In this document: piece after piece, positions 5,213 through 22,397 of the stretch | How positions within the stretch are numbered: position 1 is the first letter of the stretch | Layout of the letters: the number at the start of each line of letters is the position of its first letter | NCBI GenBank assembly: GCA_964513315.1 | Contig: CAZEMU010000001.1 | Coordinates: 38,047-99,465 of the forward strand | Length of the DNA stretch: 61,419 bases | DNA from: an uncultured Acidimicrobiaceae bacterium | GTDB lineage: Bacteria; Actinomycetota; Acidimicrobiia; Acidimicrobiales; UBA10347 | Direction: 5' to 3' | Position numbers and translations under genes: made by a program | Notes under the pieces: generated by a model | Database searches by the model: none | The model's input: the letters and a program-made list of their open reading frames with translations, nothing else | What the model was told of the DNA's origin: nothing

Positions 5213-5247
5213 GGGTATCTTTCCAGTGAATCCCGACAAATCTGGTA

Positions 5248-5261: not shown

Positions 5262-5382
5262 AGTCGGAATTAGGAAGATACGCACGCGTCAGGCCCAGGT
5301 CAACCCACCAGGACCGATTTCACATTTGCGTGCTCGCGATCGCGAGCCTCTTTTCGCTGAGCTGAGCTGCGCTGAGTTGGAC

Positions 5383-6294
5383 TCAGTTGAGCTGGCTGGT
5401 GAGTACCGCTCGCGTGCGGGCGATCTCATCGGGGTTGCCGCCCATAGGTACCGCCGTGAAGTCGGTCGCTCCGGACTGGGCGATCTCGCCGAGTCGTTCG
5501 GTCACCTCAGCCTCGCTGCCGACCAGCGAGAGATCCCCGAGGCCATGGAGCCCTTCGATGTCGAGCATGGCGCGATAGCTCGGCAGCTCGGCGTAGATCG
5601 AAAGAATCTGCGCGATGAAGTCGCGCGCCGGCTGCGGATCATCGGTGACCCAGACCGGAATCGAGCAGACGATCGAAGGCTGATTGCGTCCGGCAGCCTC
5701 GGCGGCGTCATTGAGAACAGGAGCGATGTGATCCTTGATCGTCTTCGGGCCAACGCACCACAGAATGGTGCCGTCGGTGCGTCGTCCGGCGAGCTTGAGC
5801 ATCTGCTCGCCGAGCGCCGCGACCATGACCTTGGGTCGCTCACCTTCGAAGTGGGGGATCTCGCTCTCGAGGCTCCAGAAGTGGCCGTCGTGTGATGCCT
5901 TGCCGTCTTCGATGAGCGGCTGCAGCACAGACAAGAAGTCCATCATCTGACGCACCGGCTTTTCCCACGTCATCTTCCAGCGATCGACCACCGCAGGTTC
6001 GTGTGACAAGCCGATGCCAAGAACGAGGCGGCCACCGATCGCGGCCTGGGTAGTCAGCGCCTGGCCTGCGAGCACGTACGGATGCACGGTCCAGGTCGGG
6101 ATCACGGCCGTGCCGAGCTCCATGGTCGAACCTGTGTTGCCATGCGCCGCCATCACGGTGAGCGCATCGACGCCACCCGTTTGGGCCAGCCACCACGACG
6201 AAAACCCGTCAGCCTCGGCCGCAGCGATGTCGCTTGTCATCGCTCCCAGATTGGGGTTCGCGAGCAGTCCTGAGCCATTGATTCCGATGCGCAT
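5383..6294 (-). CDS. LLM-class (luciferase-like) F420/flavin-dependent oxidoreductase
   Basis: 303 aa with typical LLM features (MRIGI..., GFSSWWLAQ, GRLVLGIGLSH). Confidence 0.7.
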   Translation of the reverse strand: MRIGINGSGLLANPNLGAMTSDIAAAEADGFSSWWLAQTGGVDALTVMAAHGNTGSTMELGTAVIPTWTVHPYVLAGQALTTQAAIGGRLVLGIGLSHEPAVVDRWKMTWEKPVRQMMDFLSVLQPLIEDGKASHDGHFWSLESEIPHFEGERPKVMVAALGEQMLKLAGRRTDGTILWCVGPKTIKDHIAPVLNDAAEAAGRNQPSIVCSIPVWVTDDPQPARDFIAQILSIYAELPSYRAMLDIEGLHGLGDLSLVGSEAEVTERLGEIAQSGATDFTAVPMGGNPDEIARTRAVLTSQLN

Positions 6295-6336
6295 CGCCTG
6301 AGCCTAGGTGCGGGTGCACGTGGGCTGGTGATCGGA

Positions 6337-7515
6337 CTAGTTCTCGTTGAGTTCTGCCGCGGTGATCGTGACGGGGAACTGTGCCCGATTGTTCGTCTCG
6401 TCGGACTCGAGCAGAACATTGTCGGGGTCGGCGATGATCTCGACCAAGTAGTCGCCCGGCGCAACTCCAGTGATATCGATCCACTGGTCAGGGAGTCCCG
6501 CACCGTAGTAGTCCGCCCATCCGGGGTTCAGCGCTTGCTGGGCGCCAGCCTGCTCACACACGGCATCAAGAAAGATGCCTTGGCCGCGGGTCTGGGCGCT
6601 CGGCGATGCGGCGAGCGCGTCAATGAGACAGAACGAGACCTTCTCGCCCGTTGCCACGACCTCACCCTCGAGGCCGAGCAATCGATAGTGCTCGAAGCCG
6701 TCGAGGTGGAAGTGGTCGTGGTCCTCGTGGAAGACGAAGGAACCGGTTCGTTGATCGACAAACCGGTTCTCGTCGGTCCAGAGGCGCTGCCACGTCGGGA
6801 TGCGCCCGTTCGTTGGCGCACGCTCCGGAATCATGTGCAGTGGACCAGCACCGAGATTTGCTGTTGCGGATGCAAATCGCAGCAGCGGTGTTCCGGGCAG
6901 GGTTGTCGTGTCGACTCGAGCTGATCGAGTTGCGATCGGCTGTGTAGGTGGTTGCCCGAAGTCTTCGACGAGCGGCACGAGGTCGGGGAGTTGTGCGTTG
7001 CCGCACTCGCTCGAACCGGCCAACAAGGCATCGAGTTCAGCCGCGCAACGCGTGGGTTGCAGAACTGGGATCTCCACATCGACATCGCCAGGTCGGGCGG
7101 GCCGACGCACCTGAACCTCGATGTCTTTGCCCGCAGGCCCTTCGACCGGAAACGTGATCTGCACGAACAGTTCCGCGGCTGCTGCGGCGTCCAGCTCGGG
7201 CACGTCGAGCACGAATCCACCCCGGTTGTCGGTCCTAACCTCGCTCGGGGACTGAAGAATCTGAGTCCCGAGGCCCAGGTGGGATACAAGCTTTTCCGCC
7301 GGCCGTTCCCCTGGGCCGATCGACTCATCTCCGTCATCGAACCATGCAACACCGGCCACGAGATCCGGGCTCGGGTCGATCTTGGGTGCCGCAGGAGAAT
7401 CGCTGGAACAGCTTGCAAATCCGCCAAGAACCAAGGCGGCGAGTACCGCAACTCTCGACCTCAACTTGAGGTTAACGAACCACGGATACCGGATTGGGCC
7501 GAATTGCTCACCCAT
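6337..7515 (-). CDS. Lysyl oxidase (LOX)-like copper amine oxidase, predicted lipoprotein
   Basis: 392 aa. N-terminal KLRSRVAVLAALVLGGFASC looks like a signal peptide plus lipobox. The C-terminal half aligns by eye to the animal LOX catalytic domain: LPDLVP; LLRFASATANLGAGPL; HEDHDHFH (HxHxH Cu site); GEKVSFCLIDA; NPGWADYYGAGLPDQWIDITGVAPGDY; ESDETNN. Confidence 0.75.
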   Translation of the reverse strand: MGEQFGPIRYPWFVNLKLRSRVAVLAALVLGGFASCSSDSPAAPKIDPSPDLVAGVAWFDDGDESIGPGERPAEKLVSHLGLGTQILQSPSEVRTDNRGGFVLDVPELDAAAAAELFVQITFPVEGPAGKDIEVQVRRPARPGDVDVEIPVLQPTRCAAELDALLAGSSECGNAQLPDLVPLVEDFGQPPTQPIATRSARVDTTTLPGTPLLRFASATANLGAGPLHMIPERAPTNGRIPTWQRLWTDENRFVDQRTGSFVFHEDHDHFHLDGFEHYRLLGLEGEVVATGEKVSFCLIDALAASPSAQTRGQGIFLDAVCEQAGAQQALNPGWADYYGAGLPDQWIDITGVAPGDYLVEIIADPDNVLLESDETNNRAQFPVTITAAELNEN

Positions 7516-7610
7516 GGATCCTCAGAGCTAGGTCGAACGAGCCGACAACTCCAGTGTCGTCTGACGGGTCGTAGGCCGTCGCCTGACTGCACGCATCCGG
7601 GGAGGAAGCA

Positions 7611-7718
7611 ATGAGAAACGAACCACAAAGAACTCGACGATCAACTGCTGTGGCAACGGTCGTCTCGGCCGTCCTCGTCTCGACTTTATTATTCATCTCA
7701 CCCCGTCCGGTTCAAGCC
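7611..7718 (+). other. Sec signal peptide of the giant protein
   Basis: MRNEPQRTRRSTAVATVVSAVLVSTLLFISPRPVQA/ANG has a basic n-region, a hydrophobic core and a VQA-A cleavage motif. Confidence 0.7.
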
Positions 7719-10700
7719 GCCAACGGGATCGTCAACAGCTACCAGGTCGCAACGGTTGTCGGCACCACGCCGGACTCGTCCGGCCTGAACAGTAGTGACT
7801 GCGCACTCGTGATTCAGATGACGGGCACGATCGCCAACGGCCTCGGCACCTACGAGATCCTCGACCCGGCAACCACGACGCCAGTCCGGAGCTACGCCGC
7901 AGCTGAGGCAGTGCAGTTCGTGATCCTGCCTGGGGGTTGTTCCAGCGCACAGACCGTCGACGCTGCAGGGGTACAGGCGCAAGCGTGGAACGGTTCGACG
8001 GGTGGCGTGATCTTTCTCGGTGGCTCCAGCCTGACGATGAACGGGGACATCGACGCAAGTGGCACGGGCTTCACCCAAACGGCTCCGCCGACGACAACGG
8101 TCAGCGACGGTGGCGACGGCATCCTGACCATGGATCCGACACGTAGCTTCCCCGACACGGTCTTTACCGGTGCTGGCGGTGGCGGCGGCATTCTCGGTGG
8201 TGGTGGCGGCGGCGGTTCGTCCAACTACACCACCTTCAATTCCAATAACGCTGCTCCTGGTGAGGGCGGTTCGCTCGTTGCGGGTGGCGCGGGTGGCGTG
8301 ACATCCGGCGTTTGGGCCGCCGGTGACGGCGGCGATCCAGCCGTCCCCGGCAACGGCGGCAGTGGTGCCGTCCTTGTGACGGGCTCCGATGTGAACAGGG
8401 TCGGCGCTGGTGGCGCTGGCGGGGGTTCGTATGGCGGCGGTGGAGGCTCGTGCGGAACGCACTTCTCGACCGCGTACTCGGCAGGCGGCGGCGGTGGCGC
8501 ATCCTGGACCGGCGGTGGCACCGGTGGTCTCGGCGGCACGAGCACTGGGCCTCCGGCTGATCTGGCAGACGGCGGACCGGGCGCCAACAACTTTGGCGCC
8601 GCAATACCTCTCGAAGGCGCCGTCGCGAATGAGCACTACCTCCACGACGATGATCCCCGACTGATGATGGGCGGCGCGGGTGGTAACCACCGCAATAACG
8701 CCGGTGGCGGTGCCGGTGGCGGCATCGTCGTCCTCGACTTCGACAATATCTCGGGCAACGGCAACGACATCGTGTCGAACGGTGGCGCTGGAGCGCCCCT
8801 TCTCAGTGCACCCGCTTCGGGCGCCGGCGGCGGCGGCGGTGGCCAGGTGTACGTCCGGGCCTACGAGGTCAACTCCGTCGATACAGCCGCCAACGGCGGC
8901 GTCGGTGGAAACAACACTGTCGGTCCTACCCACTCGGCTGTGGCCGGAAGCGGTGGTGGCGCTGGCGCCATCTGGTTCGATGGAGCGGGCTCCGATGGCA
9001 CCAACACCGGGGCGAATGACGGTGCGACGTCAGACGCATCGGCCCTCGCCCCGAGTGGCTTCAGCTCGGTGAGCTGGCAGGTCACCGGCGGCGGCCCAGG
9101 TACGACCAGCAGTGGCGTCACGATCGGCGGCTTCACCTACACCGCTCTGGCCTGGAACACGCTCTACAACACGGCTGGCAACAACTCGATCCTCAACGGC
9201 ACGACACACCTTTCCGAGGCTGCACTGCTTGCCGGCGTGAGTGAAGCTGCGATCATCGAGGCATTCCCAGCCTTTACCCAGGTCGATAACCCGAAGAATG
9301 CTGGCGCCAGCTGCATGGCCGCTGCTGGTGGTAACGGACTTGTGCGTGTCTCGCCTCCGCCTCCGGCATCGCTCGAGTTAGAGAAGGCCACCAACGGTCT
9401 TGACTCTGATGTCGCTCCCGGTCAGACCTTGACGGTGGGCGAATCGGTCACGTGGACCTATGACGTCACCGTTGGCGGCTGGGGAGCGGTCGACAACGTC
9501 ACCGTCACCGACAGCCTCGTACCAGCGGGCGATATCGAGTGCGACGTGGACTCCGACGGGACCTACGAGAGCGGCAACAACGTCGGCTCAATTGATGCTC
9601 CGGCGAGCTTCTCCTGTCGGGCCAGCAGCACCGCAGTCGCGGGCCAGTACATGAACACCGGCACGGTGACTGGCAGCGAGGGCGGCAATCCGCTCGATGA
9701 CACCGACCCGTCTCACTACGTCGGCGAGACGCCAGCGATCACGGTTGAAAAGCAGACCAATGCGGCCGAAGCAGACTCCGACACGTTGAATGACGGCTCG
9801 GAATCCCCGGCCTCGACCAGCAACGGTGCGTCGAACCCGGCGCCGATCGCGAGCGCGGTTAGCTGGACCTTCCAGATTCGCAACAACGGCGCGGTCCCGC
9901 TGACCAACGTGGCGATCTCAGACGTTACGACCACCGCCAATGACCAGAACCATGTGATCACGATCGCGTGTGACTGGGCGAGCAGCTCCGACGCGACGAC
10001 GGCAGCGCTGAATCTCTCCGTCGGCGAGACCGTGAACTGCACCGCATCCGGCACGGCCGGCACCGGCCTGCACGAGAACACGGCTACCGCGACGGGTGAT
10101 GCTGCTGGCCCACAATCGCTCGATGTGAACGGGGACCCGGTCTACGACCTGGCTGGCGATCCAGTCTTTGCCCCTAACCCTGGTGGCACGTTCACCGCAA
10201 CCGTCGACTCGCTGGGCGCCGCGATCGAAGTCGTCGATGCGGATGCATCGGGGTACGTGGGATTGCCGCCTGCGATTTCCATCGTCAAGACAGTCGTTGG
10301 CACCGCTGATGGCGATGTCGCTTCGGTGGTCGAAGGTCAAGCGGTTGCTTGGGAATTCCTTGTGACCAACACCGGCGCAGGAGCACTCGACAACGTTTCG
10401 ATCAGCGACCCGATTCTCACTGGACTTGGAGTGAGCATCTCCTGCCCGGTGACCAGCCTCGCCCAAGGCGCGGCAATGACCTGCACCGCCGCTTCGCCTG
10501 CTGGCGCGGGGGACCTCGTAAATGCGGCAACCGTCACCGGCGACCCGGCCGGCGGTGGCTCATCGGTGACCGACAACGACGATGCTGAATACACCGTTGG
10601 CGTGCCTGCAATCCAAGTCGTCAAGACAACCTGCACCGATCCGTTGGCGATACCGGCATCGTGCAGCGACGGCCCGCTCATCCCTGTTGGTGATGCGCTT

Positions 10701-13700
10701 GCATGGAACTACGTCATCACCAACACCGGTGAAGTCACGTTGGTCAACGTCTCCCTCGACGATGACATCGAGGCATCGGTTGATGCAACGAACTGCGACT
10801 GGGCGTCGAGCAGCGATGCTGCGACGGCCGCCAATGTTCTTTCCGTTGGCGAAACCGTCAGCTGTACCCAGACCGGGACGGCTGCTGTTTCGGGCTACGA
10901 CAACGTCGGCTCGGTTACCGGCGTTCCCGGCATTGATGATGGAACGCCATCGGAAGATCCGTCGGGAGACCCGCTCACACCGGTTGTCGATGATGACCCG
11001 TCCGACTACTTCGGTGTCGCCGTGCCGAGCGTTGACATCGAGAAGACGACCAACGGCGTCCAGGCCGACACGGGCACAGGCCCACTCGTCCTCGAAGGCG
11101 ACCCGGTCGACTGGGTCTTCGTCGTCACGAACAACGGCAACGTCGATCTGAGCGACGTCGTCGTGACCGATGTCGTGACGACCGACAACGGTACGGCTGA
11201 TGATCCTGACGGCGTGGTGTGCGACTGGGCGAACAGCTCTGACGCCGCAACGCCAGCCCGGAACCTCTCGGTCAACGAAACCGTGACCTGCACGGCTTCG
11301 TCCACCGCCGAGTTTGGCCAGTACACAAACGACTCATCCGTGACCGGTACGCCGGTCGCCGATGCCGAGACGGCAGACCCTGACAGCCCGGTCCGTCTGA
11401 CCGACGTCGACGGCAATCCTGTCGGCGATGTCAATGACGACGACCCGTCGGCCTACTTCGGCCCGAATGCGTCGATCGATATTGAGAAGGACACGAACGG
11501 CAACCAGGCCGACGTCCTCGCTGACCAAGACACGTACTCCATCGGTGACGCCATCGACTGGACCTTCGTCGTCCGCAACGACGGCAACGTCGACTTGGCC
11601 GACGTGACCGTGTCGGACACTGTCACGATCGACAACGGCACCGCTGCTGATCCTGACGGTGTGGTGTGCGACTGGGCGAACAGCTCCGATGGCGCAACGC
11701 CGGCCCGGAACCTCTCGGTCGGTGAGACCGTGACCTGCACCGCGAGCTCGTCGGCCGAAGCGGGTCAGTACCGCAACGTCGGCGACGTCGTCGGCACGCC
11801 GGTGGACGACGCCGTGACCGCTGATCCCGATGCTCCGACACCGCTCCAAGACGAGAGCGGCACCAATCTTGCGAACGTGGTCGACGATGACCCCTCGCAC
11901 TACTACGGCGAACCAGCCCCTTCGATCGACATCGAGAAGGACACGAACGGCACCCAAGCCGACCTCGTGAGCGACCAGGACTACATCGCCATCGACGATC
12001 CGGTCACGTGGACGTTCGCGGTCCGCAATGACGGCAACGTCGACCTCGCTGACGTCGTCGTGACCGACAGTGTCACGATCGACAACGGCACGGCTGCTGA
12101 TCCCGACGGTGTGGTGTGCGATTGGGCGAACAGCTCTGACTCGGCGACGCCTGCCCGGAACCTCTCGGTGAACGAAACGGTGACCTGTACCTCGTCGTCG
12201 ATCGCCGAACCAGGCCAGTACGGCAACCTGTCCAACGTCAGCGGCACACCAGTCGCAGACGCAACGACCGCTGACCCGGACGCACCGGTTGCGCTCCAGG
12301 GCATCAACGGTGTCGACCTGGTCGACGTCACCGATGCTGACCCCTCGCACTACTTCGGTCTCGTCCTCCCCGCGGTCGACATCGAGAAGGACACGAACGG
12401 TTTCCAGGCCGACACTGGCACGGGCCCGTTGGTGTTCGAGAACGATCCGGTTCTGTGGACCTTTGAGGTTGAGAACACCGGCAACGTCGCCCTCGGCAAT
12501 GTGACCGTGACCGATGTCGTCACAACCGACAACGGCACAGCTGATGATCCAGATGGTGTGGTGTGCGATTGGGCGAACAGCTCCGATGCAACCACGCCGG
12601 CCCGGGTCCTCTCGGTCGACGAGACCGTGACCTGTACTTCGTCCTCGACGGCCGAGCTCGGTCAATACCGCAATAACTCGAATGTCGTTGGTGCACCCCT
12701 CGCCAATGACGGCTCGGCCTTGCTGGGCGACGATGGCAACCCCATGCCGAACGTCACCGACCAGGACCCATCGGGTTACTTCGGTCCGAATGCGTCGATC
12801 GATATTGAGAAGGACACGAACGGCACCCAGGCCGACGTCATCGGCGACCAAGACACCTTGGCGGTCGGCGATGCGATCACGTGGAACTTCGTCGTCACCA
12901 ACGACGGCAATGTCGATCTGGCCGATGTGACCGTCAACGACACCGTCACCATCGACAACGGCACCGGCGCCGACCCGTTCGGCGTGCAGTGCGATTGGGC
13001 GGACAGCTCCGACCCTGCGACGCCCGCGCGGAACTTGTCCGTGGGCGAGTCCGTCGAATGCTTCTCCACCAGCGTCGCTGCACCGGGCCAGTACCGCAAT
13101 GTCGGTGACGTCGTCGGTACTCCAGTCGCTGATGCGGTGACCGCTGATCCGAACTCGCCGACGCCATTGCAGGACGAGAATGGCACTGATCTGGCTGACG
13201 TGGTCGATGACGATCCGTCGCACTACTACGCAGCTCCACAGCCTGCGATCGACATCGAGAAGGACACGAACGGCAACCAGGCTGACGTGCTTGGTGACCA
13301 GGACTACCTGGCGATCGGCGCAGCTGTCACCTGGACCTTCGAGGTCGAGAACACCGGCGACGTTGATCTCGCTGATGTCGTCGTCACCGACAGCGTCACG
13401 ATCGACAATGGCACGGCTGCCGATCCCGACGGTGTGGTGTGCGATTGGGCGAACAGCTCCGACTCGGCAACGCCCGCTCGGAACCTCTCGGTGAACGAGA
13501 CGGTGACCTGCACGTCGTCGTCCATCGCGGTCGCGGGCCAGTACCGCAACAATTCGACCGTGGTCGGTACGCCCGTCGCCGACGCGGAGACCGCCGACCC
13601 GGACGCACCGGTTGCGCTGCAGGACATCGACGGTGTCGATCTGGTCGACGTCACCGACGCCGATCCCTCGCACTACTACGGCCTCGCGATTCCGGCGATC

Positions 13701-16700: not shown

Positions 16701-19700
16701 GACGGCGCCCCGTTTGCGGACGTCACCGACGAGGACCCGTCGGCCTACTTCGGTCCAAGTGCCTCGATCGACATTGAGAAGGACACGAACGGCACCCAAG
16801 CCGATGTGCTCGTCGACCAAGACACCTTGTCGATTGGTGCGCCCGTCACCTGGACCTTCGTGGTCACCAACGACGGCAACGTCGACCTGGCCGACGTCAC
16901 CGTGTCAGACACGGTGACGATCGACAACGGCACCGCCGCTGATCTCAACGGTGTGGTCTGCGACTGGGCGAGCAGCTCCGACGCAGCAACGCCCGCTCGC
17001 AACCTGAGCGTCGGCGAAACTGTGAGCTGTACTTCCAACTCGGTCGCAGTCGCTGGTCAGTACCGCAACGACAGCGATGTCGTTGGTACGCCCGTCGCCG
17101 ATGCGACGACCGCTGATCCGAACGCCCCGACGCCACTCCAAGACGAGAACGGCAACACGCTGACTGACGTCACCGACGCCGACCCGTCTCACTACTACGC
17201 ACAGCCACAGCCTTCGATCGACATCGAGAAGGACACGAACGGCAATCAGGCCGATGTGCTCGCCGACCAGGACACCCTGGCCATCGGGTCGCCCGTCACC
17301 TGGACGTTCGATGTCGTGAACGATGGCAACGTCGATCTCGCTGACGTCCTGGTCACCGACACGGTGACCGTCGACAACGGCACGATCGCTGACCCTGATG
17401 GCGTGGTGTGTGATTGGGCGAACAGTTCTGACGCGACGACGCCAGCTCGCAACCTTTCGGTCGGCGAGACGGTGACCTGCACGTCGAGCTCGATCGCCGA
17501 AGCCGGCCAGTACCGCAACGACTCCAACGTGACCGGTACGCCGGTCGCAGACGCAACGACCGCTGACCCGGACGCACCGGTTGCGCTCCAGGACATCGAC
17601 GGCAATGACCTTGCCGACGTGACCGACGACGATCCGTCGCACTACTACGGCGACGCCATTCCTCAGATCGATATCGAGAAGGACACCAACGGCTTCCAAG
17701 CCGACACCGGCACCGGCCCACTCGTCTTCCTCGGAGACACGGTGACGTGGACCTTCGTGGTCACCAACACGGGCACGGCAACGCTGAGCGACGTCACGGT
17801 CACGGACACTGTGACGACCGATAACGGCACCGCTGTTGACCCCGACGGTGTGGTGTGCGACTGGGCGAACAGCTCTGACGTCGATACCCCGGCCGACACC
17901 CTCGCTCCGCTCGAGACGGTCACCTGCACCGCTTCGTCGAGCGCTGAGCTCGGGCAGTACAACAACGTCGCCGACGTTGTCGGAACGCCCGTTGGTTCCG
18001 ATGGCAGTCCGCTGCTCGATCCGGATGGCAACGCCCTCCCGAATGTCACCGACGATGACCCGTCGGCCTACTTCGGACCCGATGCGTCTATTGACATCGA
18101 GAAGGACACGAACGGCAACCAGGCCGACGTCATCGCTGACCAGGACATCGTCCCGGTCGGAAGCGCCGTCGTCTGGACCTTCGTGGTCGAGAACACGGGC
18201 AACGTCGACCTGGCCAACGTTGACGTCACCGACGTGGCGACGATCGACAACGGCACCGCTGCTGATCCTGCCGGCGTGGTGTGCGACTGGGCGAACAGCT
18301 CTGACGCCGACACCCCAGCTCGCAACCTGAGCATCGGCGAAACCGTCACGTGCACCTCGGCCAGCCAGGCCGAAGCCGGTCAGTACGGCAACCTGTCTGC
18401 CGTCGTCGGCACCCCGGTCGCTGACGCAATAACCGCTGACCCGTTCGCACCGACTCCACTGGTTGATGAGACGGGCACCGAGCTACCTGCGGTCAGCGAC
18501 AGCGATCCGTCCCACTACTTCGGCGAGGCCACGCCAGCGATCGACATCGAGAAGGACACGAACGGCAACCAGGCCGACGTGCTCGAGGACCAGAGCAACC
18601 TGGCGCTCGGCGACGACGTCGTCTGGACCTTCGTGGTCACCAACACGGGCGACACCGATCTCTCCGACGTCACCGTGGTGGACACGGTGACCATCGACAA
18701 CGGCACCGCTCCCGACCCGGACGGCGTCGTGTGCGATTGGGCGAACAGCTCTGACGCTGCGACCCCAGCCCGCAACCTGTCCGTCGGCGAAACGGTGACG
18801 TGCACGTCGAGCTCGACGGTTGAGAACGGCCAGTACCGCAACGACTCCGATGTGACCGGCACGCCGGTCGCTGATGCGATCACTGCAGATCCGGACGCAC
18901 CCGTTGCGCTTCAAGACATTGACGGCGCGGACCTCGCTGATGTCACCGACGAGGACCCTTCGCACTACTTCGGTGCGCAGTCGGCGATCGTCATCGAGAA
19001 GGACACGAACGGCAACCAGGCCGACGTGCTCGGCGGCCAAGACAACATCGAAGCTGGCGCCCCTGTCGTCTGGACCTTCGTCGTGACGAACACCGGCAAC
19101 GTCGATCTCGCCGATGTCATCGTCACCGACACGGTCACGATCGACAATGGCACGGCTGCTGATCCCGCAGGTGTGGTGTGCGATTGGGCGAACAGCTCTG
19201 ACGCAGCGACGCCAGCCCGCAACTTGTCCATCGACGAGACGGTCACCTGCACGGCGTCTTCGACAGCTGTTGCCGGTCAGTACCGCAACGATGCTGACGT
19301 GATCGGCACACCTGTTGCCGATGCGACGACCGCTGACCCCGACAACCCAACGCCGATCGACGGACCGGATGGCCAGCCGATCCCGAAGCCGACCGACGCT
19401 GATCCGTCGCACTACTTCGGCGTTGACGCTTCGATCGACATCGAGAAGGACACGAACGGCAACCAGGCCGATGTTGCCGCAGACCAAGACGTCTTGGCGA
19501 TCGCGACACCAATCACCTGGACCTTCGATGTCCTGAACGATGGCAATGTCGATCTCGCAGACGTCGTGGTCACCGACACCGTGACGATCGACAATGGCAC
19601 CGCCGTGGATCCTGCCGGTGTCGTATGCGACTGGGCGAACAGCTCCGATGCGTTCACCCCGGCCGGCAACCTGTCCGTGGGCGAGACGGTCCGCTGTACC

Positions 19701-22397
19701 TCGACCTCGATGGCTGCTGCTGGCCAGTACGCAAACCTCGGCGATGTCGTCGGTACTCCGGTCGACGATGCAACCGACCCAGCGCCGACCCCGCTCGTTG
19801 ACGGCGACGACCAGCCACTTCCGGCGGTCACCGATGACGACCCGTCGCACTACTTCGGTGGCGCCCAGGCCGCGATCGATATCGAGAAGGACACGAACGG
19901 CAACCAGGCCGACACGATCTCGGCTCAGGACTCGATCCCTGTCGGGGCACCGATCACCTGGACGTACGTGGTCACCAACATCGGCGACGTCGACCTCATC
20001 AACGTCGTCGTCACCGACACGGTGGCCATCGACAACGGCACGGTCGCCCCGGACACGGTCGTCTGCGACTGGGAGAACAGCTCGGACGCTGCGACCCCGA
20101 TCGAGGCGCTGTCCGTCGGCGAAACCGTGACCTGTCTCGCCAGCTCCACCGCCGCACCCGGCCAATACCGCAATGACGGCGACGTCGTCGGCACCCCGGT
20201 GCTCGACGCCACCGTGGCGAACCCGGAACCGGTCCTCGACGGTGCGGGCGATCCGCTCGCCGACGTGACCGACACGGACCCATCGCACTATATGGGTGCA
20301 GCCCCGTCGATCGACGTCGAGAAGGACACGAACGGCAACCAGGCCGACCTCATCGGCGAGCAACAGCAACTCGCGATTGGCGAGGCCGTCACGTGGACGT
20401 ACGTCCTGACCAACGATGGCAACACCGACCTCGCTGACGTGTCGCTCGTCGACGATGTCGTCATCGACAACGGCACCGCAAGCTCCGCAATCACCTGTGA
20501 TTGGGATGCCAGCACCAACGAAGCAACGCCAGATGGAGCGCTCGCCATGGGCGAGTCCGTGATCTGCACCGCTACAGGCACCGCAGTCGTCGGCCAGTAC
20601 GGCAACCTCGCCGAGGTCGTCGGAACGCCGGTTGATGATGCAACGCTTGACACCCCCGAACCAGTCATCGTCGACGGCGAACCACTGCCGCCCGTCGATG
20701 ACGCTGACCCGTCGCACTACTTCGGTCGTGCGAACCCATCGATCGGCATCGAGAAGGACACCAACGGCGTCCAGGCCGACACGATCGCCGACCAAGGTGG
20801 CGTCGACACGGGAGCGGGTCTGCTCTGGACCTTCGTTGTCACCAACGATGGCGATGTCGACCTTGCCGAAGTCGCTCTCGGCGACACGGTGACGATTGAC
20901 AACGGCACGACCCACGACTCCGAAGGCATCGTCTGCGACTGGGCGAACAGCTCCGACGCAGCGACGCCCGCTGACCGTCTGTCGGTCGGCGAGACCGTCA
21001 CGTGCACGCTGCAGGGCGTCGCAGGAGCCGGTCAGTACGGCAACCTCGCCGATGTCGTCGCCACGCCAGTCACGACCGCGGTGGGCGTACCTGAGCTGCT
21101 GCTCGACCCAAGTGGCACGCCGCTCGCCGACGTCGTCGACGAAGACCCGTCGCATGTCTTCGCCGGGTTCTTCCCAGCGATCGACATCGAGAAGGCCACC
21201 AACGGCATCGACGCCGACACGACGGAAGACCAGCCGTTCATCGATCCAAGCGGCGCTGTGCTGTGGACCTTCGAGGTCCGCAACACCGGCAACGTCGACC
21301 TGGCTGGTGTCGAGGTCGAAGATGCGATGACGATCGACAACGGCACGGTCACACCAGCTGTCGTATGCGACTGGGACACGAGCAGCGATCCGGCCACGCC
21401 GGCCCGCAATCTGTCCGTCGGGGAAACCGTCAGCTGCACCTCCTCGGCGACCGCCGAGTCTGGCCAGTACGCCAACGTGAGCTCGGTCACTGCAACGCCA
21501 GTGCTCGATGCCACCACCGCCGACCCAGATGCTCCGACGCCGCTGCGTGACATCGATGACCAGCCGGTCGCCGACGTCTCCGACGACGACCCGTCGCACT
21601 ACTTCGGTCCGGTCTTCGACCTCGCCCTGCGCAAGCAGCTGAGCGACGGTACGAACTTGGGTAAGACCAAGATCGGCGAAACGGTCACCTTCACGATCAC
21701 GTTGTTCAACCAGGGCAATGTCCCGGCCAGCAACATCGAGGTCGTCGACTACCTGCCGTCAAACCTTGAGCTTGCTGATCCGGCGTGGGTTGCTGTCCAA
21801 GGTGGAGCACTCATCGCCCTCGACGGCACCATCCTGCAACCGGGTGACACGACGACGGTGGACATCACGGTCAAGGTGATTGCCGGCGGCGAGCGCCTCG
21901 ACACTGAGATCGACGTCGAGGCGGAGATCTCAAAGGCTGACGGCGTCGACGACGATGGTGAGCCGATCATGCTGCAAGGCGTGAACGGTGTGCCGCTTGC
22001 GTTGCTCGACGTTGACTCGGTGCCCGACGCCAACAACGACGAGGCTCCGGTCGAGGACGAAATCGACAATGCCGACGGCGACGAAGACGATCACGACCGT
22101 GTTGGTCTGATCATCGAAGCTGACCCGGTCGACGTTGTCGATCCGCCCGAGCCGACGCCAACGACGCCGAGCACCCCGAACACGCCAGCTCCCGAGCTGC
22201 CGACCATCACCAATCCTCCAGCAGGGCCTGCGCCAACCCCGCAGACACCGGAGCCATCGGGGCCGCTCGCCTTCACCGGTGCGGACTCAGCCCATCTCGC
22301 AGCGATCGCAGCGATGCTGATCACTGCCGGTGGAGCGTTGATGATCCTGGGTCGCCGACACGACGAGGACGACCAGGCAGCGGGCGAGTTCGGCTGA
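7611..22397 (+). CDS. Giant (4,928 aa) secreted, sortase-anchored cell-surface repeat protein (adhesin-like)
   Basis: Single uninterrupted ORF. GGGGAGGAAGCA precedes the ATG. It has a signal peptide, a Gly-rich head, 28 tandem DUF11/DUF7507-like Ig-fold units, a terminal DUF11-like domain, an acidic segment, a Pro/Thr linker, and LAFTG followed by a TM helix and an RRH tail. Confidence 0.9.
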   Translation: MRNEPQRTRRSTAVATVVSAVLVSTLLFISPRPVQAANGIVNSYQVATVVGTTPDSSGLNSSDCALVIQMTGTIANGLGTYEILDPATTTPVRSYAAAEAVQFVILPGGCSSAQTVDAAGVQAQAWNGSTGGVIFLGGSSLTMNGDIDASGTGFTQTAPPTTTVSDGGDGILTMDPTRSFPDTVFTGAGGGGGILGGGGGGGSSNYTTFNSNNAAPGEGGSLVAGGAGGVTSGVWAAGDGGDPAVPGNGGSGAVLVTGSDVNRVGAGGAGGGSYGGGGGSCGTHFSTAYSAGGGGGASWTGGGTGGLGGTSTGPPADLADGGPGANNFGAAIPLEGAVANEHYLHDDDPRLMMGGAGGNHRNNAGGGAGGGIVVLDFDNISGNGNDIVSNGGAGAPLLSAPASGAGGGGGGQVYVRAYEVNSVDTAANGGVGGNNTVGPTHSAVAGSGGGAGAIWFDGAGSDGTNTGANDGATSDASALAPSGFSSVSWQVTGGGPGTTSSGVTIGGFTYTALAWNTLYNTAGNNSILNGTTHLSEAALLAGVSEAAIIEAFPAFTQVDNPKNAGASCMAAAGGNGLVRVSPPPPASLELEKATNGLDSDVAPGQTLTVGESVTWTYDVTVGGWGAVDNVTVTDSLVPAGDIECDVDSDGTYESGNNVGSIDAPASFSCRASSTAVAGQYMNTGTVTGSEGGNPLDDTDPSHYVGETPAITVEKQTNAAEADSDTLNDGSESPASTSNGASNPAPIASAVSWTFQIRNNGAVPLTNVAISDVTTTANDQNHVITIACDWASSSDATTAALNLSVGETVNCTASGTAGTGLHENTATATGDAAGPQSLDVNGDPVYDLAGDPVFAPNPGGTFTATVDSLGAAIEVVDADASGYVGLPPAISIVKTVVGTADGDVASVVEGQAVAWEFLVTNTGAGALDNVSISDPILTGLGVSISCPVTSLAQGAAMTCTAASPAGAGDLVNAATVTGDPAGGGSSVTDNDDAEYTVGVPAIQVVKTTCTDPLAIPASCSDGPLIPVGDALAWNYVITNTGEVTLVNVSLDDDIEASVDATNCDWASSSDAATAANVLSVGETVSCTQTGTAAVSGYDNVGSVTGVPGIDDGTPSEDPSGDPLTPVVDDDPSDYFGVAVPSVDIEKTTNGVQADTGTGPLVLEGDPVDWVFVVTNNGNVDLSDVVVTDVVTTDNGTADDPDGVVCDWANSSDAATPARNLSVNETVTCTASSTAEFGQYTNDSSVTGTPVADAETADPDSPVRLTDVDGNPVGDVNDDDPSAYFGPNASIDIEKDTNGNQADVLADQDTYSIGDAIDWTFVVRNDGNVDLADVTVSDTVTIDNGTAADPDGVVCDWANSSDGATPARNLSVGETVTCTASSSAEAGQYRNVGDVVGTPVDDAVTADPDAPTPLQDESGTNLANVVDDDPSHYYGEPAPSIDIEKDTNGTQADLVSDQDYIAIDDPVTWTFAVRNDGNVDLADVVVTDSVTIDNGTAADPDGVVCDWANSSDSATPARNLSVNETVTCTSSSIAEPGQYGNLSNVSGTPVADATTADPDAPVALQGINGVDLVDVTDADPSHYFGLVLPAVDIEKDTNGFQADTGTGPLVFENDPVLWTFEVENTGNVALGNVTVTDVVTTDNGTADDPDGVVCDWANSSDATTPARVLSVDETVTCTSSSTAELGQYRNNSNVVGAPLANDGSALLGDDGNPMPNVTDQDPSGYFGPNASIDIEKDTNGTQADVIGDQDTLAVGDAITWNFVVTNDGNVDLADVTVNDTVTIDNGTGADPFGVQCDWADSSDPATPARNLSVGESVECFSTSVAAPGQYRNVGDVVGTPVADAVTADPNSPTPLQDENGTDLADVVDDDPSHYYAAPQPAIDIEKDTNGNQADVLGDQDYLAIGAAVTWTFEVENTGDVDLADVVVTDSVTIDNGTAADPDGVVCDWANSSDSATPARNLSVNETVTCTSSSIAVAGQYRNNSTVVGTPVADAETADPDAPVALQDIDGVDLVDVTDADPSHYYGLAIPAIDIEKDTNGFQADTGTGPVVFEGDAVVWTFEVQNTGNVALGNVTVTDAVTTDNGTAADPAGVVCDWANSSDAATPAQVLSVNETVTCTAASTAELGQYNNNSNVVGTPLAVDGSPLLDDAGMPVPNVVDQDPSGYFGPDASIDIEKDTNGNQADLLADQDSYSIGDAIDWTFVVRNDGNVDLADVTVADTVTIDNGTAADPAGVVCDWPNSSDAATSARNLSVGETVTCTSSSAAEAGQYRNVGDVVGTPVADAVTADPNSPTPLQDENGTDLADVVDDDPSHYYAAPQPAIDIEKDTNGNQADTLATQDILAIGDAVVWTFVVENTGDVDLADVVVTDSVTIDNGTAADPAGVVCDWANSSDAATPARNLSVGETVECTSGSVAEAGQYANLADVVGTPVADAVTADPDAPVALQDINGVDLADVVDDDPSHYYAQAVPAIDIEKDTNGFQADTGTGPVVFEGDAVVWTFEVQNTGNVALGSVTVTDAVTTDNGTAADPDGVVCDWANSSDAATPDQVLSVNETVTCTAASTAELGQYNNNSNVVGAPLADDGSALLGDDGVPLPNVTDQDPSGYFGPTASIDIEKDTNGNQADVLADQDVIAIGDAVVWTFEVENTGNVDLAAVTVSDTVTTDNGTAADPNGVVCDWANSSDPATPAGNLSVDETVTCVSMSTAAAGQYRNDVDVVGTPVADAVGADPLAPSPLTDFNGTPMSNVTDADPSHYYGDPQPSIDIEKDTNGNQADVLADQDIIPIGAPVTWTFVVVNDGNVDLSDVTVVDSVTVDNGTVADPDGVVCDWANSSDAATPARNLAVNETVTCTSTSTAEAGQYRNDSDVVGTPVADATTADPDAPVALQDIDGNDLADVIDADPSHYYGDAIPGIDIEKDTNGFQADTGTGPLVLEGDAVTWTYVVTNIGTSALADVVVTDTVTLDNGTAADPDGVVCDWANSTDAATPAGTLARGEQVTCTASSVAELGQYRNDADVVAMPIAANGSRLLDEDGAPFADVTDEDPSAYFGPSASIDIEKDTNGTQADVLVDQDTLSIGAPVTWTFVVTNDGNVDLADVTVSDTVTIDNGTAADLNGVVCDWASSSDAATPARNLSVGETVSCTSNSVAVAGQYRNDSDVVGTPVADATTADPNAPTPLQDENGNTLTDVTDADPSHYYAQPQPSIDIEKDTNGNQADVLADQDTLAIGSPVTWTFDVVNDGNVDLADVLVTDTVTVDNGTIADPDGVVCDWANSSDATTPARNLSVGETVTCTSSSIAEAGQYRNDSNVTGTPVADATTADPDAPVALQDIDGNDLADVTDDDPSHYYGDAIPQIDIEKDTNGFQADTGTGPLVFLGDTVTWTFVVTNTGTATLSDVTVTDTVTTDNGTAVDPDGVVCDWANSSDVDTPADTLAPLETVTCTASSSAELGQYNNVADVVGTPVGSDGSPLLDPDGNALPNVTDDDPSAYFGPDASIDIEKDTNGNQADVIADQDIVPVGSAVVWTFVVENTGNVDLANVDVTDVATIDNGTAADPAGVVCDWANSSDADTPARNLSIGETVTCTSASQAEAGQYGNLSAVVGTPVADAITADPFAPTPLVDETGTELPAVSDSDPSHYFGEATPAIDIEKDTNGNQADVLEDQSNLALGDDVVWTFVVTNTGDTDLSDVTVVDTVTIDNGTAPDPDGVVCDWANSSDAATPARNLSVGETVTCTSSSTVENGQYRNDSDVTGTPVADAITADPDAPVALQDIDGADLADVTDEDPSHYFGAQSAIVIEKDTNGNQADVLGGQDNIEAGAPVVWTFVVTNTGNVDLADVIVTDTVTIDNGTAADPAGVVCDWANSSDAATPARNLSIDETVTCTASSTAVAGQYRNDADVIGTPVADATTADPDNPTPIDGPDGQPIPKPTDADPSHYFGVDASIDIEKDTNGNQADVAADQDVLAIATPITWTFDVLNDGNVDLADVVVTDTVTIDNGTAVDPAGVVCDWANSSDAFTPAGNLSVGETVRCTSTSMAAAGQYANLGDVVGTPVDDATDPAPTPLVDGDDQPLPAVTDDDPSHYFGGAQAAIDIEKDTNGNQADTISAQDSIPVGAPITWTYVVTNIGDVDLINVVVTDTVAIDNGTVAPDTVVCDWENSSDAATPIEALSVGETVTCLASSTAAPGQYRNDGDVVGTPVLDATVANPEPVLDGAGDPLADVTDTDPSHYMGAAPSIDVEKDTNGNQADLIGEQQQLAIGEAVTWTYVLTNDGNTDLADVSLVDDVVIDNGTASSAITCDWDASTNEATPDGALAMGESVICTATGTAVVGQYGNLAEVVGTPVDDATLDTPEPVIVDGEPLPPVDDADPSHYFGRANPSIGIEKDTNGVQADTIADQGGVDTGAGLLWTFVVTNDGDVDLAEVALGDTVTIDNGTTHDSEGIVCDWANSSDAATPADRLSVGETVTCTLQGVAGAGQYGNLADVVATPVTTAVGVPELLLDPSGTPLADVVDEDPSHVFAGFFPAIDIEKATNGIDADTTEDQPFIDPSGAVLWTFEVRNTGNVDLAGVEVEDAMTIDNGTVTPAVVCDWDTSSDPATPARNLSVGETVSCTSSATAESGQYANVSSVTATPVLDATTADPDAPTPLRDIDDQPVADVSDDDPSHYFGPVFDLALRKQLSDGTNLGKTKIGETVTFTITLFNQGNVPASNIEVVDYLPSNLELADPAWVAVQGGALIALDGTILQPGDTTTVDITVKVIAGGERLDTEIDVEAEISKADGVDDDGEPIMLQGVNGVPLALLDVDSVPDANNDEAPVEDEIDNADGDEDDHDRVGLIIEADPVDVVDPPEPTPTTPSTPNTPAPELPTITNPPAGPAPTPQTPEPSGPLAFTGADSAHLAAIAAMLITAGGALMILGRRHDEDDQAAGEFG
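8160..9000 (+). other. Glycine-rich head region with multiple G5-G7 runs
   Basis: Runs such as GAGGGGGILGGGGGGGSSNY, GAGGAGGGSYGGGGGSCG, GGGGGASWTGGGTGGLGG, GGGAGGGIVVLD, GAGGGGGGQVYVRA and GSGGGAGAIWFDG are separated by short beta-like segments. Boundaries are approximate. Confidence 0.5.
9366..21607 (+). repeat. Array of 28 tandem repeat units, mostly 141-150 aa (the four N-terminal units are divergent and vary in length); Ig-like TIGR01451/DUF11 plus DUF7507-type fold by motif resemblance
   Basis: Each unit starts with (I/V)D(I/V)EK(D/T)TNG and ends with D(D/A)DPSHY(Y/F)G. Consensus core: W(T/V)F.V.N.GNVDL..V.V.D.V..DNGTA.DP.GVVCDWANSSDA.TPARNLSVGETVTC. Confidence 0.85.
11475..18089 (+). 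repeat. Five complete copies of a 1,323-bp (441-codon) A-B-C super-repeat (A 450 bp, B 450 bp, C 423 bp)
   Basis: The A-unit ATCGA(T/C)ATTGAG / ATTGACATCGAG motif recurs at 11475, 12798, 14121, 15444, 16767 and 18090, spaced exactly 1,323 bp apart. In copy 1 the B unit starts at 11925 and the C unit at 12375. C units carry FQADTGTGP. Confidence 0.9.
22266..22394 (+). other. C-terminal cell-wall sorting signal (LAFTG, hydrophobic helix, charged tail)
   Basis: P-LAFTG-ADSAHLAAIAAMLITAGGALMILG-RRHDEDD. The LAxTG motif is the recognition type of class E sortases in Actinobacteria (established knowledge). Confidence 0.75.

Follow-up and report, generated by a model that had tools for sequence, protein, structure and literature searches.

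What does a bacterial lysyl oxidase (LOX) homolog do when its gene lies beside that of a giant surface adhesin, and which lysine, if any, does it oxidize? Actinobacteria are among the prokaryotes in which LOX homologs have been described (Grau-Bove et al. 2015, PMC4448552), and both that paper and a 2019 study of an archaeal enzyme (PMC6452851) call the native function of these proteins unknown or cryptic. We analyzed a stretch of 61,419 nucleotides from an uncultured Acidimicrobiaceae bacterium (hereafter, the window), in which a LOX-family gene on the reverse strand (6337..7515; 392 aa, Pfam PF01186) is divergent from the gene of a giant sortase-anchored fibrillar adhesin on the forward strand (7611..22397; 4,928 aa). 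A first-pass annotation of this DNA had proposed that the enzyme oxidizes a lysine that recurs at regular spacing along the adhesin. The analysis described here supports the pairing of the two genes but directs attention to a different part of the adhesin.

Results

The Gene Pair and Its Surroundings

The start codons of the two genes are separated by an intergenic region of 95 bp (7516..7610). This gap, the coordinates of both open reading frames and the LAFTG anchor of the adhesin had been reported in the first-pass annotation; all were re-checked and are correct. Scanning this gap for promoters gave no consensus sigma-70 site inside it, a result that carries no information for an actinobacterium. 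On both sides, the flanks in the window consist of metabolic genes that have no relation to the pair. No sortase gene was found adjoining the pair in the window, nor was a pilin or pilus sortase gene found there adjoining the adhesin gene, which encodes a single giant LAFTG protein instead.

The LOX Protein Is Predicted to Be Active and Membrane-Tethered

The 392-aa protein matched Pfam Lysyl_oxidase (PF01186) with an E-value of 7e-20 and 72 bits (cut-off 20.4), and a profile of 31 LOX orthologs matched human LOXL2 (PDB 5ZE3) with an E-value of 7.6e-24. In the catalytic domain (6367..6744; reverse strand, as for all features of this gene), the Cu-binding motif reads FVFHEDHDHFH and aligns to WIWHDCHRHYH of LOXL2, which gives a copper site of H263-x2-H266-x-H268-x-H270 (nt 6706-6729). 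The LTQ Lys is K292 (nt 6640-6642), in the sequence GEKVSFCLID that aligns to GHKASFCLED of LOXL2, and the LTQ Tyr is Y337 (nt 6505-6507), in GWADYYG, which aligns to DMY of LOXL2. These four His residues, K292 and Y337 were invariant in the alignment of 31 homologs. With every catalytic residue of the family kept, the protein is predicted to be a catalytically competent copper amine oxidase.

The N-terminal signal peptide (7408..7515) ends in a lipobox-like sequence, GFAS-C36, in which position -3 is occupied by a non-canonical Phe. The description of the protein as a LOX-like lipoprotein in the first-pass annotation is reasonable, because C36 is kept in most of the 31 orthologs. In the LOX proteins of the Microbacterium clade, an N-terminal TM segment takes the place of the lipobox Cys. 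The window protein is probably a lipoprotein or an otherwise membrane-tethered secreted enzyme. An SdrD_B/CnaB-like domain is located at about aa 50-150 (7066..7368, boundaries approximate); PF17210 was matched in several orthologs, and the ortholog profile had a weak match to SdrD (E 2e-4).

The Adhesin Is a Sortase-Anchored Fibrillar Protein

The giant protein begins with a signal peptide (aa 1-36; 7611..7718, forward strand, as for all features of this gene) with a putative cleavage site at its end, ...PVQA/A. It is followed by a glycine-rich head (aa 37-584; 7719..9362), a stalk of 28 Ig-like DUF7507 (CLIPPER_2) domains (aa 585-4667; 9363..21611) recognized from Pfam, alignments and AF2, and a terminal DUF11 (CLIPPER) domain (aa 4668-4790; 21612..21980), for which the best Pfam stretch was 4670-4780 and TIGR01451 also matched. 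The remaining C-terminal region (21981..22397) consists of an acidic and then Pro/Thr-rich spacer, the sorting signal, a hydrophobic helix and a positive tail. LAFTG occurs at aa 4886-4890 (nt 22266-22280) and is followed by ADSAHLAAIAAMLITAGGALMILG and then by RRHDEDD. The NCBIfam models for LAVTG/LAETG sortase signals matched this C-terminus weakly, with scores below or near their cut-offs; the signal peptide, LAFTG, hydrophobic segment and basic tail are together those of an LPXTG-type surface protein. As judged from its sequence, the adhesin is of the sortase-anchored fibrillar type, with a Sec signal, head, stalk, Pro/Thr spacer and LAFTG anchor.

The adhesin is acidic overall (computed pI near 4) and has 35 Lys residues (0.71%), 28 of which, one per repeat, share a single column of the repeat alignment. 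The earlier remark that Lys is almost absent from the protein holds in this respect, but the depletion is not specific to Lys, as Arg is likewise low (1.18%, versus 4-8.5% in neighboring genes).

The Stalk Lysines Are Likely Consumed by Isopeptide Bonds

DUF7507 (PF24346) matched the adhesin over 28 stretches (E 4.4e-210, 683 bits; cut-off 27). The stalk is largely a super-repeat of 150-150-141 aa with two Cys per domain, and TRF reported a period of 450 nt. The repeats are not an assembly artifact, since they are only ~70% identical to each other in DNA. The first-pass annotation had counted 28 occurrences of IDIEKDTNG; the Lys column is present in all 28 repeats, but the exact 9-mer occurs only 18 times. 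The pattern [IV]x[IV]EKxTN[GA] fits 25 repeats, and the four most N-terminal repeats diverge more.

Nine columns are invariant across the 28 repeats, K8, D51 and N104 among them. DUF7507 is CLIPPER_2, for which an intramolecular isopeptide triad of Lys72, Asp112 and Asn152 has been predicted in a reference domain spanning residues 65-169 (Protein Sci 2025, PMC12617251). When the repeat at aa 887-988 was placed on the family profile (positions 2-104), K893 fell at position 8 and D933 at position 48, as in the reference, and N971 lay no more than two positions away from where the reference has its Asn. An AF2 model of a repeat (aa 1286-1435, pLDDT 93) has strands at 5-10, 22-25, 29-37, 43-55, 88-96, 100-113 and 138-149, so that K8 is in the first strand, D51 in the central strand (43-55) and N104 in the penultimate strand. 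Such a placement of the Lys and the Asn is that of CnaA-like isopeptide geometry.

A structure has been solved only for the sister family DUF11 (9IFR), and none for DUF7507 (PMC12617251). Foldseek with the repeat model gave nothing stronger than Ig-like matches to RrgB pilin and CARDB (best E 7e-4), which are too weak for residue-level transfer, and comparison of the repeat profile and the terminal DUF11 domain with the PDB gave chance-level matches only (azurin, cellulose-binding domain); 9IFR was not retrieved by either search.

The triad is a property of the family at large. It was complete in 1,189 of the 1,307 (91%) DUF7507 domains from 150 other proteins, and the repeat-type Lys was kept in 1,237 of these domains. 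Loss of the Lys was accompanied by loss of the Asn (odds ratio 7, p 2e-8), while the control pair, K versus W, had an odds ratio of 1.1. A scan of the sequences of the 150 proteins found no LOX domain within them, and the glycine-rich head was present in one of the 150.

Based on these comparisons and on the AF2 model, the repeat lysines are almost certainly consumed by the predicted intradomain Lys-Asn isopeptide bonds. The Lys would be the nucleophile and the Asp the catalyst of an autocatalytic reaction, and the bond formed in each domain would act as a staple by which the stalk resists force and proteases. Lysines engaged in this manner would be buried and consumed, and would for that reason not be LOX substrates. 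The proposal that LOX oxidizes the spaced repeat lysines is made very unlikely by the K8-D51-N104 triad, which points to this Lys as an isopeptide Lys, and does so in proteins with no LOX domain. The first-pass annotation had itself named a repeat Lys that is buried or held in an intradomain bond as evidence against its proposal, and such a bond is what the family assignment, the invariant columns and the AF2 strands indicate in silico. An invariant Lys that recurs at regular spacing in the Ig-like repeats of a surface protein should be taken, in the first instance, for an isopeptide Lys.

The Conserved Partner of LOX Is the Head of the Adhesin

A search of 185,579 genomes confirmed 161 places with relatives of the LOX protein. 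Genes of this LOX subfamily have a surface-protein gene as their neighbor at about 17 diverse loci, from Acidimicrobiia, Microbacterium and a T9SS-type contig. The element common to these surface proteins is a ~550-aa glycine-rich N-terminal head, and their stalks vary, being composed of DUF7507, DUF11, SdrD_B, SpaA_3 or DUF5979 domains, or being almost absent. LOX-linked relatives have stalk domains of other kinds, or DUF7507-like ones whose residue at the Lys position is Thr or Ala. The conserved neighbor of LOX is the head, and not the DUF7507 repeats that the earlier proposal had taken as its partner.

Searching from the LOX side, the head was found to adjoin LOX in the window and at L002, L003, L004, L005, L006, L009 and L010, and at the further loci L011, L012, L059, L130 and L131. 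From the head side, LOX was found to adjoin the head at L081-85, L084, L088, L097 and L086/87. The gene orders seen were divergent, LOX before head, head before LOX, and head-pilin-sortase-LOX. LOX identity across the paired loci, which belong to classes of Actinomycetota and to the T9SS-type contig, was 34-74%. In the Microbacterium operons, the head gene precedes a gene for a GramPos_pilinD1/BB major pilin with a VYPKN motif and a sortase gene, and LOX is last; Microbacterium koreense and Microbacterium sp. H83 are among the carriers of this operon. No head was found near the Planctomycetota LOX genes or those of other phyla (L013-L080), near L129, which has the same LOX subfamily, or near the second paralogs L007 and L019.

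Additional searches were made with the head. A metagenome scan with the whole-head alignment, in which only poly-Gly patterns were used, confirmed nothing, and a scan with the N-terminal module returned 34 loci, most of them distant relatives (90-150 bits) that lacked both LOX and the N-P-K-N region described below. Three loci (L092, L093 and L094) have close head relatives with flanks too short to judge LOX adjacency. In word-index protein searches with the head, Gly-rich words filled up the candidate list, so that few proteins came out and many of the hits were fragments; three hits that were followed up lay in assemblies with too many frameshifts to be informative. Overall, this comparative-genomics check, which had been suggested in the first-pass annotation, found LOX beside a sortase-anchored surface protein in numerous distant relatives, with several different gene arrangements, and on the evidence of these gene neighborhoods we consider the LOX-adhesin pairing to be real.

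The Head Contains a Single Conserved Lysine

The head has a ~120-aa N-terminal beta module (containing SDCALVIQMTG and EAVQFV), followed by glycine-rich repeats with the motifs DPRLMMGGAGG, GGGIVVLDF, GGQ and IWF. A Pfam search with the head gave no match. Its assignment as an AgmC_N member was rejected (NCBIfam score of 28 bits against a cut-off of 275), as was its assignment as collagen-like, G-X-Y repeats being absent. The AF2 model of the head had a mean pLDDT of 61 and was confident only in the first ~120 aa and in parts of 330-400; Foldseek with this model found nothing below an E-value of 0.5. Within the head, the peptide FTQVDNPKNAGAS is the stretch around residue 562.

That residue, K562 (9294..9296, forward strand), is in the motif N-P-K-N and is the single Lys of the 548-aa head in the window (aa 37-584); the aligned head from L002 also has a single Lys. 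We consider K562 a candidate LOX target. Its column is the only conserved Lys column of the head alignment, with Lys in 13 of the 14 aligned heads, including every head that has a LOX neighbor. Arg is present at this column in L089/L090, the one informative locus that has no LOX. M. paraoxydans EaN35-6 (L008) has a tip protein without the head and a LOX gene interrupted by two in-frame stops. The association between K562 and LOX is composed of synteny together with one case of K-to-R at a LOX-less locus and one pseudogene case, both of them anecdotal.

Discussion

A Proposed Role for LOX in Maturation of the Adhesin Head

From the gene neighborhoods and alignments above, we infer that LOX acts on or with the head of the adhesin, with K562 as a possible site. 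We think it probable that the locus encodes an adhesin with a stapled stalk and a competent LOX that is functionally coupled to it through the head and not through the stalk, oxidation of K562 being the most likely mechanism. Points against this mechanism are that a membrane-tethered LOX can reach the head only during export and that no head lies near the LOX genes L129, L007 and L019. The head would leave the Sec channel beside the lipoprotein LOX, which would oxidize K562 in N-P-K-N to allysine. The aldehyde of allysine could then form a Schiff-base or aldol link to a partner amine, which might belong to a second adhesin, to the wall or matrix, or to the surface of a substrate. A broader hypothesis, which we put forward tentatively and which may well not hold, is that the enzymes of this LOX subfamily are devoted to maturing sortase-dependent adhesins and pilus tips, in which they would convert the single invariant Lys at the base of the head (K562) to allysine.

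A somewhat unlikely alternative is that LOX and the adhesin cooperate while the adhesin itself is unmodified. The head would bind a target that bears an amine, such as a polyamine, an aminoglycoside-like compound, a side chain of peptidoglycan or a protein of the host or matrix, and LOX would oxidize that target or produce H2O2 and aldehyde locally. The conserved synteny of the head is consistent with such cooperation, as is the relaxed specificity of the characterized archaeal LOX for many free amines and polymers (PMC6452851). However, cooperation of this kind leaves unexplained why a nearly Lys-free head has one invariant Lys and why that Lys is Arg in a LOX-less relative, and the lipoprotein and a tip on a long stalk would be far apart after assembly.

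K562 could also be kept for a reason unrelated to LOX, which would then be linked to the adhesin by co-regulation or envelope biogenesis only. The Lys might form an isopeptide bond in the head, between a C-terminal strand and the N-terminal module, and the Asn, Asp and Glu residues that are invariant in the heads (N19, D40 and E76, A3 numbering) could serve such a bond. It might otherwise be a pilin-motif-like sortase nucleophile, as N-P-K-N resembles the YPKN pilin motif and true VYPKN pilins are encoded in the Microbacterium operons. We regard this explanation as improbable. The tip subunit of a sortase pilus needs no nucleophile Lys, and the tip pilin gene usually precedes that of the major pilin; the Microbacterium head protein is in the tip-pilin gene position and its Lys is kept nonetheless. 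A weaker argument is that, in the AF2 head model, N-P-K-N falls in a predicted coil of the lowest confidence and not in a core strand. The coincidence of K-to-R with the absence of LOX would also be unexplained.

Oxidation of the repeat lysines (IDIEK) to allysine, by which the fiber would be cross-linked to itself, its neighbors, the wall or the matrix, was an attractive proposal in view of the adjacent divergent genes, the intact LOX and the one strictly conserved Lys per repeat. That these lysines are the LOX substrate is now very unlikely. The residue is the family-wide CLIPPER_2 isopeptide Lys, co-conserved with Asp and Asn, and triads of this type are buried in the solved examples (rASA below 0.05). 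It is kept throughout a set of LOX-domain-free proteins that, with one exception, have no such head, while LOX-linked relatives have other stalks or Thr/Ala at its position. In addition, the assembled 28-domain stalk would be out of reach of a membrane-anchored lipoprotein. That the adjacency is fortuitous or merely inherited, with the two genes functionally unrelated, could be argued from the metabolic flanks in the window and from the LOX genes without a head at L007, L019 and L129, but is scarcely credible given that the pairing recurs at such divergent LOX identities across Actinomycetota classes and the T9SS-type contig, in at least four gene orders and with differing stalks, and that both families are rare.

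With a conserved partner gene and one candidate residue, the question of prokaryotic LOX function is open to direct experiment. If maturation of K562 proves true, it would assign the first physiological role and substrate to a prokaryotic LOX, and the system would be a bacterial counterpart of LOX-driven cross-linking of the animal matrix. It would also represent a new enzyme-dependent covalent chemistry at the Gram-positive cell surface, in which an aldehyde tip is used for attachment or cross-linking, and would bear on how the pairing of LOX with structural-protein substrates arose before animals.

Comparison with Known Systems

The stalk of the window adhesin belongs to the same family as those of CLIPPER_2/CLIPPER (PF24346/PF01345) adhesins, with the same triad positions and the same placement of a tandem stalk between an N-terminal head and a sorting signal (PMC12617251). 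The isopeptide bond is predicted in both, but the window repeat is ~145-150 aa long whereas CLIPPER_2 is ~105 aa, the extra length coming from a long loop ahead of the last strand and from an acidic insertion in which a pair of Cys is conserved.

Among prokaryotic LOX proteins, HTU-LOX of Haloterrigena turkmenica is a true BAPN-sensitive amine oxidase that is active on peptidyl Lys (PMC6452851), and it is the only one of these homologs for which such activity has been shown. The subfamily described here differs in having a conserved partner gene; the accessible portions of the two papers on prokaryotic LOX (PMC4448552, PMC6452851) mention no neighborhood link.

The head gene of Microbacterium is in the position of the tip-adhesin gene in SpaA-type pilus operons of Corynebacterium, likewise before the pilin and sortase genes. 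We know of no pilus cluster that has been described to close with a LOX gene. The TED adhesins of Gram-positive bacteria have a conceptual likeness only, as by analogy they too would carry a chemical warhead at the tip for covalent binding of a target. To our knowledge, TED and the glycine-rich head have no sequence relationship. TED makes its Cys-Gln thioester autocatalytically, while a LOX-made aldehyde would need a separate enzyme.

Animal LOX and LOXL1-4 (e.g., LOXL2, 5ZE3) are extracellular and have a homologous catalytic domain, with the Cu His triad and the LTQ Lys and Tyr. Unlike these enzymes, the window LOX is without SRCR domains or a propeptide and has a lipoprotein signal and an SdrD_B-like domain, and its partner is neither collagen nor elastin, the head being without G-X-Y repeats. 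Even so, the pairing of an enzyme with a glycine-rich structural protein in animals resembles, by analogy, the relationship that we propose between LOX and the adhesin head.

Gene Pair and Giant Adhesin

The LOX gene (6337-7515, minus strand) is an ORF of 392 aa matching Pfam Lysyl_oxidase (E 7e-20), and the adhesin gene (7611-22397, plus strand) is an ORF of 4,928 aa with 28 Pfam DUF7507 matches and a DUF11 match at its end. The start codons of the two genes are 95 bp apart, and G+C content is ~64% across the whole window. The adhesin comprises, in order, a signal peptide, the 28 DUF7507 matches, one DUF11, a Pro/Thr spacer, LAFTG (aa 4886-4890), a hydrophobic helix and a basic tail. Our ORF list and translations bore out the genes, coordinates, gap and LAFTG anchor described in the first-pass annotation, which had also reported that the adhesin nearly lacks Lys except for one per repeat. 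Lys is indeed scarce (35 residues, 0.71%), and 28 of the 35 fall in a single column of the 28 aligned repeats, although the motif IDIEKDTNG occurs exactly 18 times and not 28. The scarcity is not specific to Lys, but part of a general shortage of basic residues (Arg is 1.2%, versus 4-8.5% in neighboring genes, whose Lys content is 0.6-2.3%).

The repeats are genuinely diverged copies, as they are ~70% identical in DNA. TRF detected a 450-nt period in the stalk (the repeats plus DUF11) at 68-71% identity, indicating old, diverged copies, and the spacing of the repeat Lys reveals a super-repeat of three domains (150-150-141 aa) at 11162-20202. A second sortase-substrate candidate, a 310-aa Fasciclin-domain protein ending in LAVTG, is encoded at 38260-39189 (minus strand).

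The LOX Enzyme

Six residues (H263, H266, H268, H270, K292 and Y337) are invariant in 31 full-length LOX homologues of 34-74% identity. The profile of these homologues aligned to the crystal structure of human LOXL2 (E 8e-24), with the six residues falling on what we take, from established LOX knowledge, to be its Cu-binding His and LTQ-forming Lys and Tyr. Retention of the catalytic residues is thus strongly supported by alignment. The N-terminal part of LOX resembles an SdrD_B/CnaB-like domain and its signal peptide ends in GFAS-Cys36; this lipobox-like Cys is kept in most orthologues, with a TM anchor instead in the Microbacterium clade. Based on the invariant catalytic residues and the lipobox-like Cys or TM anchor, LOX is very probably active as an amine oxidase outside the cytoplasm, tethered to the membrane.

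Synteny of LOX and the Glycine-Rich Head

Scanning a single genome from each species for LOX confirmed 161 relatives, of which 80 loci were retrieved (retrieved loci are designated by L numbers). In the actinobacterial-type LOX subfamily, a large sortase-anchored protein adjoins LOX at nearly all loci; within the 80 retrieved loci, those of Planctomycetota, Verrucomicrobiota, Myxococcota and others had no comparable neighbor. Alignment revealed that these neighbors share with the window protein its N-terminal ~550 aa, the head, which consists of a ~120-aa beta module (SDCALVIQMTG, EAVQFV) and, after it, repeats rich in glycine (DPRLMMGGAGG, GGGIVVLDF, GGQ, IWF). A head HMM placed the head beside LOX in the window, in Acidimicrobiales and one Acidobacteriota-labelled MAG (L002, L003, L004, L005, L059 and L011), in an Actinomycetota MAG (L010), in Aquihabitans (L012), in Microbacterium (L006 and L009) and at metagenomic loci L130 and L131. 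Starting from head homologues, LOX was found adjacent and divergent at L081-L085, L084 and L088, and 65 nt downstream of the head at L097; at L086/87, a T9SS-type LOX protein comes immediately after the second member of a pair of head proteins. The two genes were divergent at some loci, while at others LOX preceded the head or the head preceded LOX; in Microbacterium the order was head-adhesin, major pilin, sortase and LOX. The stalks of LOX-linked head proteins varied from DUF7507, DUF11, SdrD_B (10 copies), SpaA_3 or DUF5979/DUF7927 to almost none in 825-aa proteins, and Thr or Ala occupied the repeat-Lys position in the two DUF7507-like domains of L004, L005 and L059. Overall, our data strongly support synteny of LOX and the glycine-rich head across wide distances, and the conserved partner of LOX is the head, not the stalk.

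The exceptions among the LOX loci of this subfamily were L129, L007 and L019; L001 and L018 were too short to judge. L007 and L019 are second LOX paralogues and share their MAGs with L001 and L002: two Acidimicrobiales MAGs, CALKPY01 (L001/L007) and CALDYC01 (L002/L019), carry two LOX paralogues each. At L002 the LOX gene has a head protein as its partner, the L007 and L019 paralogues have no such neighbor, and at L001 a truncated LAVTG protein of the DUF11/DUF7617 type is convergent to LOX.

Several other loci merit description. L006 (3804-11074, Microbacterium koreense) and L009 (2-5290, Microbacterium sp. H83) encode a glycine-rich-head adhesin (LPXTG), a VYPKN major pilin, a sortase and LOX; the major pilin of the Microbacterium operon is of the GramPos_pilinD1/BB type with a YPKN motif. 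We know of no description of a LOX gene inside a sortase-pilus cluster. On JGI metagenome contigs, L086 (7833-18274) and L087, two head-bearing CLIPPER proteins precede a protein of 689 aa that carries a weak LOX domain, Ig_7 and a Por_Secre_tail (T9SS) signal, and the pairing there seems to extend beyond Gram-positives, using another route of export and anchoring. The L003 head protein (843-9669, minus strand) is split into a pair of overlapping ORFs (5371-9669 and 843-5951), probably a single gene of ~2,900 aa interrupted by a frameshift or an error of assembly; 10 SdrD_B domains form its stalk, the protein ends in LAFTG, and the Acidobacteriota label of the MAG is odd beside a sortase signal. 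The L131 head protein (1-1968, minus strand) has N-P-K-S as its head motif and is cut short on the contig within a first stalk domain reading PAIDVEKDTNGNQA, with the motif as in the window repeats. Of the proteins found, it probably comes nearest to the window protein in architecture; the LOX at this locus has 42% identity.

K562 as a Candidate Target

The window head contains exactly one Lys, K562, which lies in an N-P-K-N motif ~20 residues N-terminal to the start of the stalk, and the aligned L002 head likewise has a single Lys. The K562 column is the only conserved Lys column of 14 aligned heads (Lys in 13/14), with Lys present in every head that has the motif region and a LOX neighbor. 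The motif reads N-P-R-G in L089/L090, the sole locus with ample flanks and no LOX. This only informative LOX-less head homologue (L089 8001-10622, and L090) has 28 Arg in its head, and its gene follows those for a sigma-70-family factor, a CHAT protein and a subtilase. In the pilus operon of Microbacterium paraoxydans EaN35-6 (L008), the tip protein lacks a glycine-rich head and the LOX gene at the operon end (9809-11035) has two in-frame stops (GGEE*PPP and GRFV*HAEH), one directly preceding the first His of the Cu-site motif, which may represent co-loss. The L089/L090 Arg and the L008 pseudogene are single instances and could be coincidence.

No Pfam family was found for the head, and its only NCBIfam match (window 7719-9362), far below threshold (E 1e-6, 28 bits versus a cut-off of 275), was to AgmC_N, an N-terminal domain named after AgmC, a gliding-motility protein of Myxococcus; the match may reflect glycine-rich composition only. 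The AlphaFold model of the head was poor (pLDDT 61) and gave no structural match; K562 lies in its least confident, coil-predicted stretch.

We infer that LOX acts on or with the head. In the most economical version, tethered LOX would oxidize K562 to allysine as the N-terminal head leaves the adjacent Sec channel, and the aldehyde so formed could provide for covalent attachment or for cross-linking. This oxidation step is proposed from synteny and two anecdotal cases of co-variation. Less probably, the LOX target might be a ligand or wall amine and not the adhesin, a reading that fits the synteny with the head but does not explain the invariant Lys. Less probably still, K562 might serve a sortase-type linkage or an isopeptide bond within the head, which would leave the Arg at the LOX-less locus unexplained. 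Chance pairing of LOX and adhesin is very improbable: the pairing, which the first-pass annotation had noted in the window, is conserved in relatives, with many LOX-adjacent heads in several gene orders found from both the LOX and the head side.

The Repeat Lysine and the Isopeptide Triad

A 2025 isopeptide-bond survey derived DUF7507 from AlphaFold models in which a Lys-Asn isopeptide bond was predicted, renamed it CLIPPER_2 and placed its triad at Lys72, Asp112 and Asn152 within domain residues 65-169 (PMC12617251). The sister domain DUF11/CLIPPER has been solved with its intramolecular isopeptide bond present (9IFR); in CnaA-like domains the bond links the first and penultimate strands with an Asp catalyst, and isopeptide triads are buried (rASA < 0.05) (PMC12617251).

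A MAFFT alignment of the 28 repeats had nine invariant columns (K8, W32, G40, V47, D51, C91, N104, D140 and D142). Repeat 887-988 aligned to DUF7507 profile positions 2-104, placing K893 at position 8 and D933 at position 48, both as in the reference, with N971 at most two positions from the reference Asn. In the AlphaFold2 model of repeat 1286-1435 (pLDDT 93, seven strands), K8 was on the first strand, N104 on the penultimate and D51 on the long central strand. A repeat-profile search of 1.84 billion representative proteins yielded 12,065 proteins, and the K/D/N triad was complete in 1,189 of 1,307 domains (91%) taken from the best 150. In these domains Lys loss accompanied Asn loss (odds ratio 7; p 2e-8, indicative only because the domains are phylogenetically non-independent), whereas the control pair, Lys and the conserved Trp, was uncoupled (odds ratio 1.1). 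Among these best 150 DUF7507-type proteins, a LOX domain was found within none of the protein sequences and a glycine-rich head in only one.

These data strongly support that the stalk is a CLIPPER_2 array with its Lys part of an isopeptide triad. Based on triad positions, strand placement, and family-wide conservation and coupling of K/D/N, the repeat Lys is a structural residue throughout the family, with burial and consumption in a covalent bond predicted for it. The first-pass proposal that LOX oxidizes these regularly spaced lysines to cross-link the fiber has very low probability, the predicted burial and bonding of the Lys being the outcome that its author had named as refuting it.

Each stalk repeat also has two conserved Cys (columns C68 and C91; VVCDW ... 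ETVTCT; 62 Cys in total; 9363-21611), located inside or beside an acidic insertion (DNGTAADPDG, SSD) that is missing from the canonical 105-aa DUF7507 and in which the pLDDT of the repeat model falls to 70-79. These features point to a disulfide and perhaps also to loops that bind Ca2+.

Comparison with Known Systems

Literature searches on LOX with sortase, LOX with a fibrillar adhesin, and prokaryotic lysyl oxidase gave nothing relevant, and no description was found of a conserved LOX-head module or of its place at the end of a pilus operon. The window LOX belongs to the prokaryotic LOX enzymes already known, the native role of which is called unknown or cryptic in two papers (PMC4448552, PMC6452851); through the LOX-head pairing, what LOX does in bacteria becomes open to direct testing. 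Apart from its great length, the stalk of the adhesin is ordinary for the 2025 family to which it belongs. Neither the enzyme family nor the architecture of the adhesin is new; what has not been described, to our knowledge, is their pairing, with a candidate target residue.
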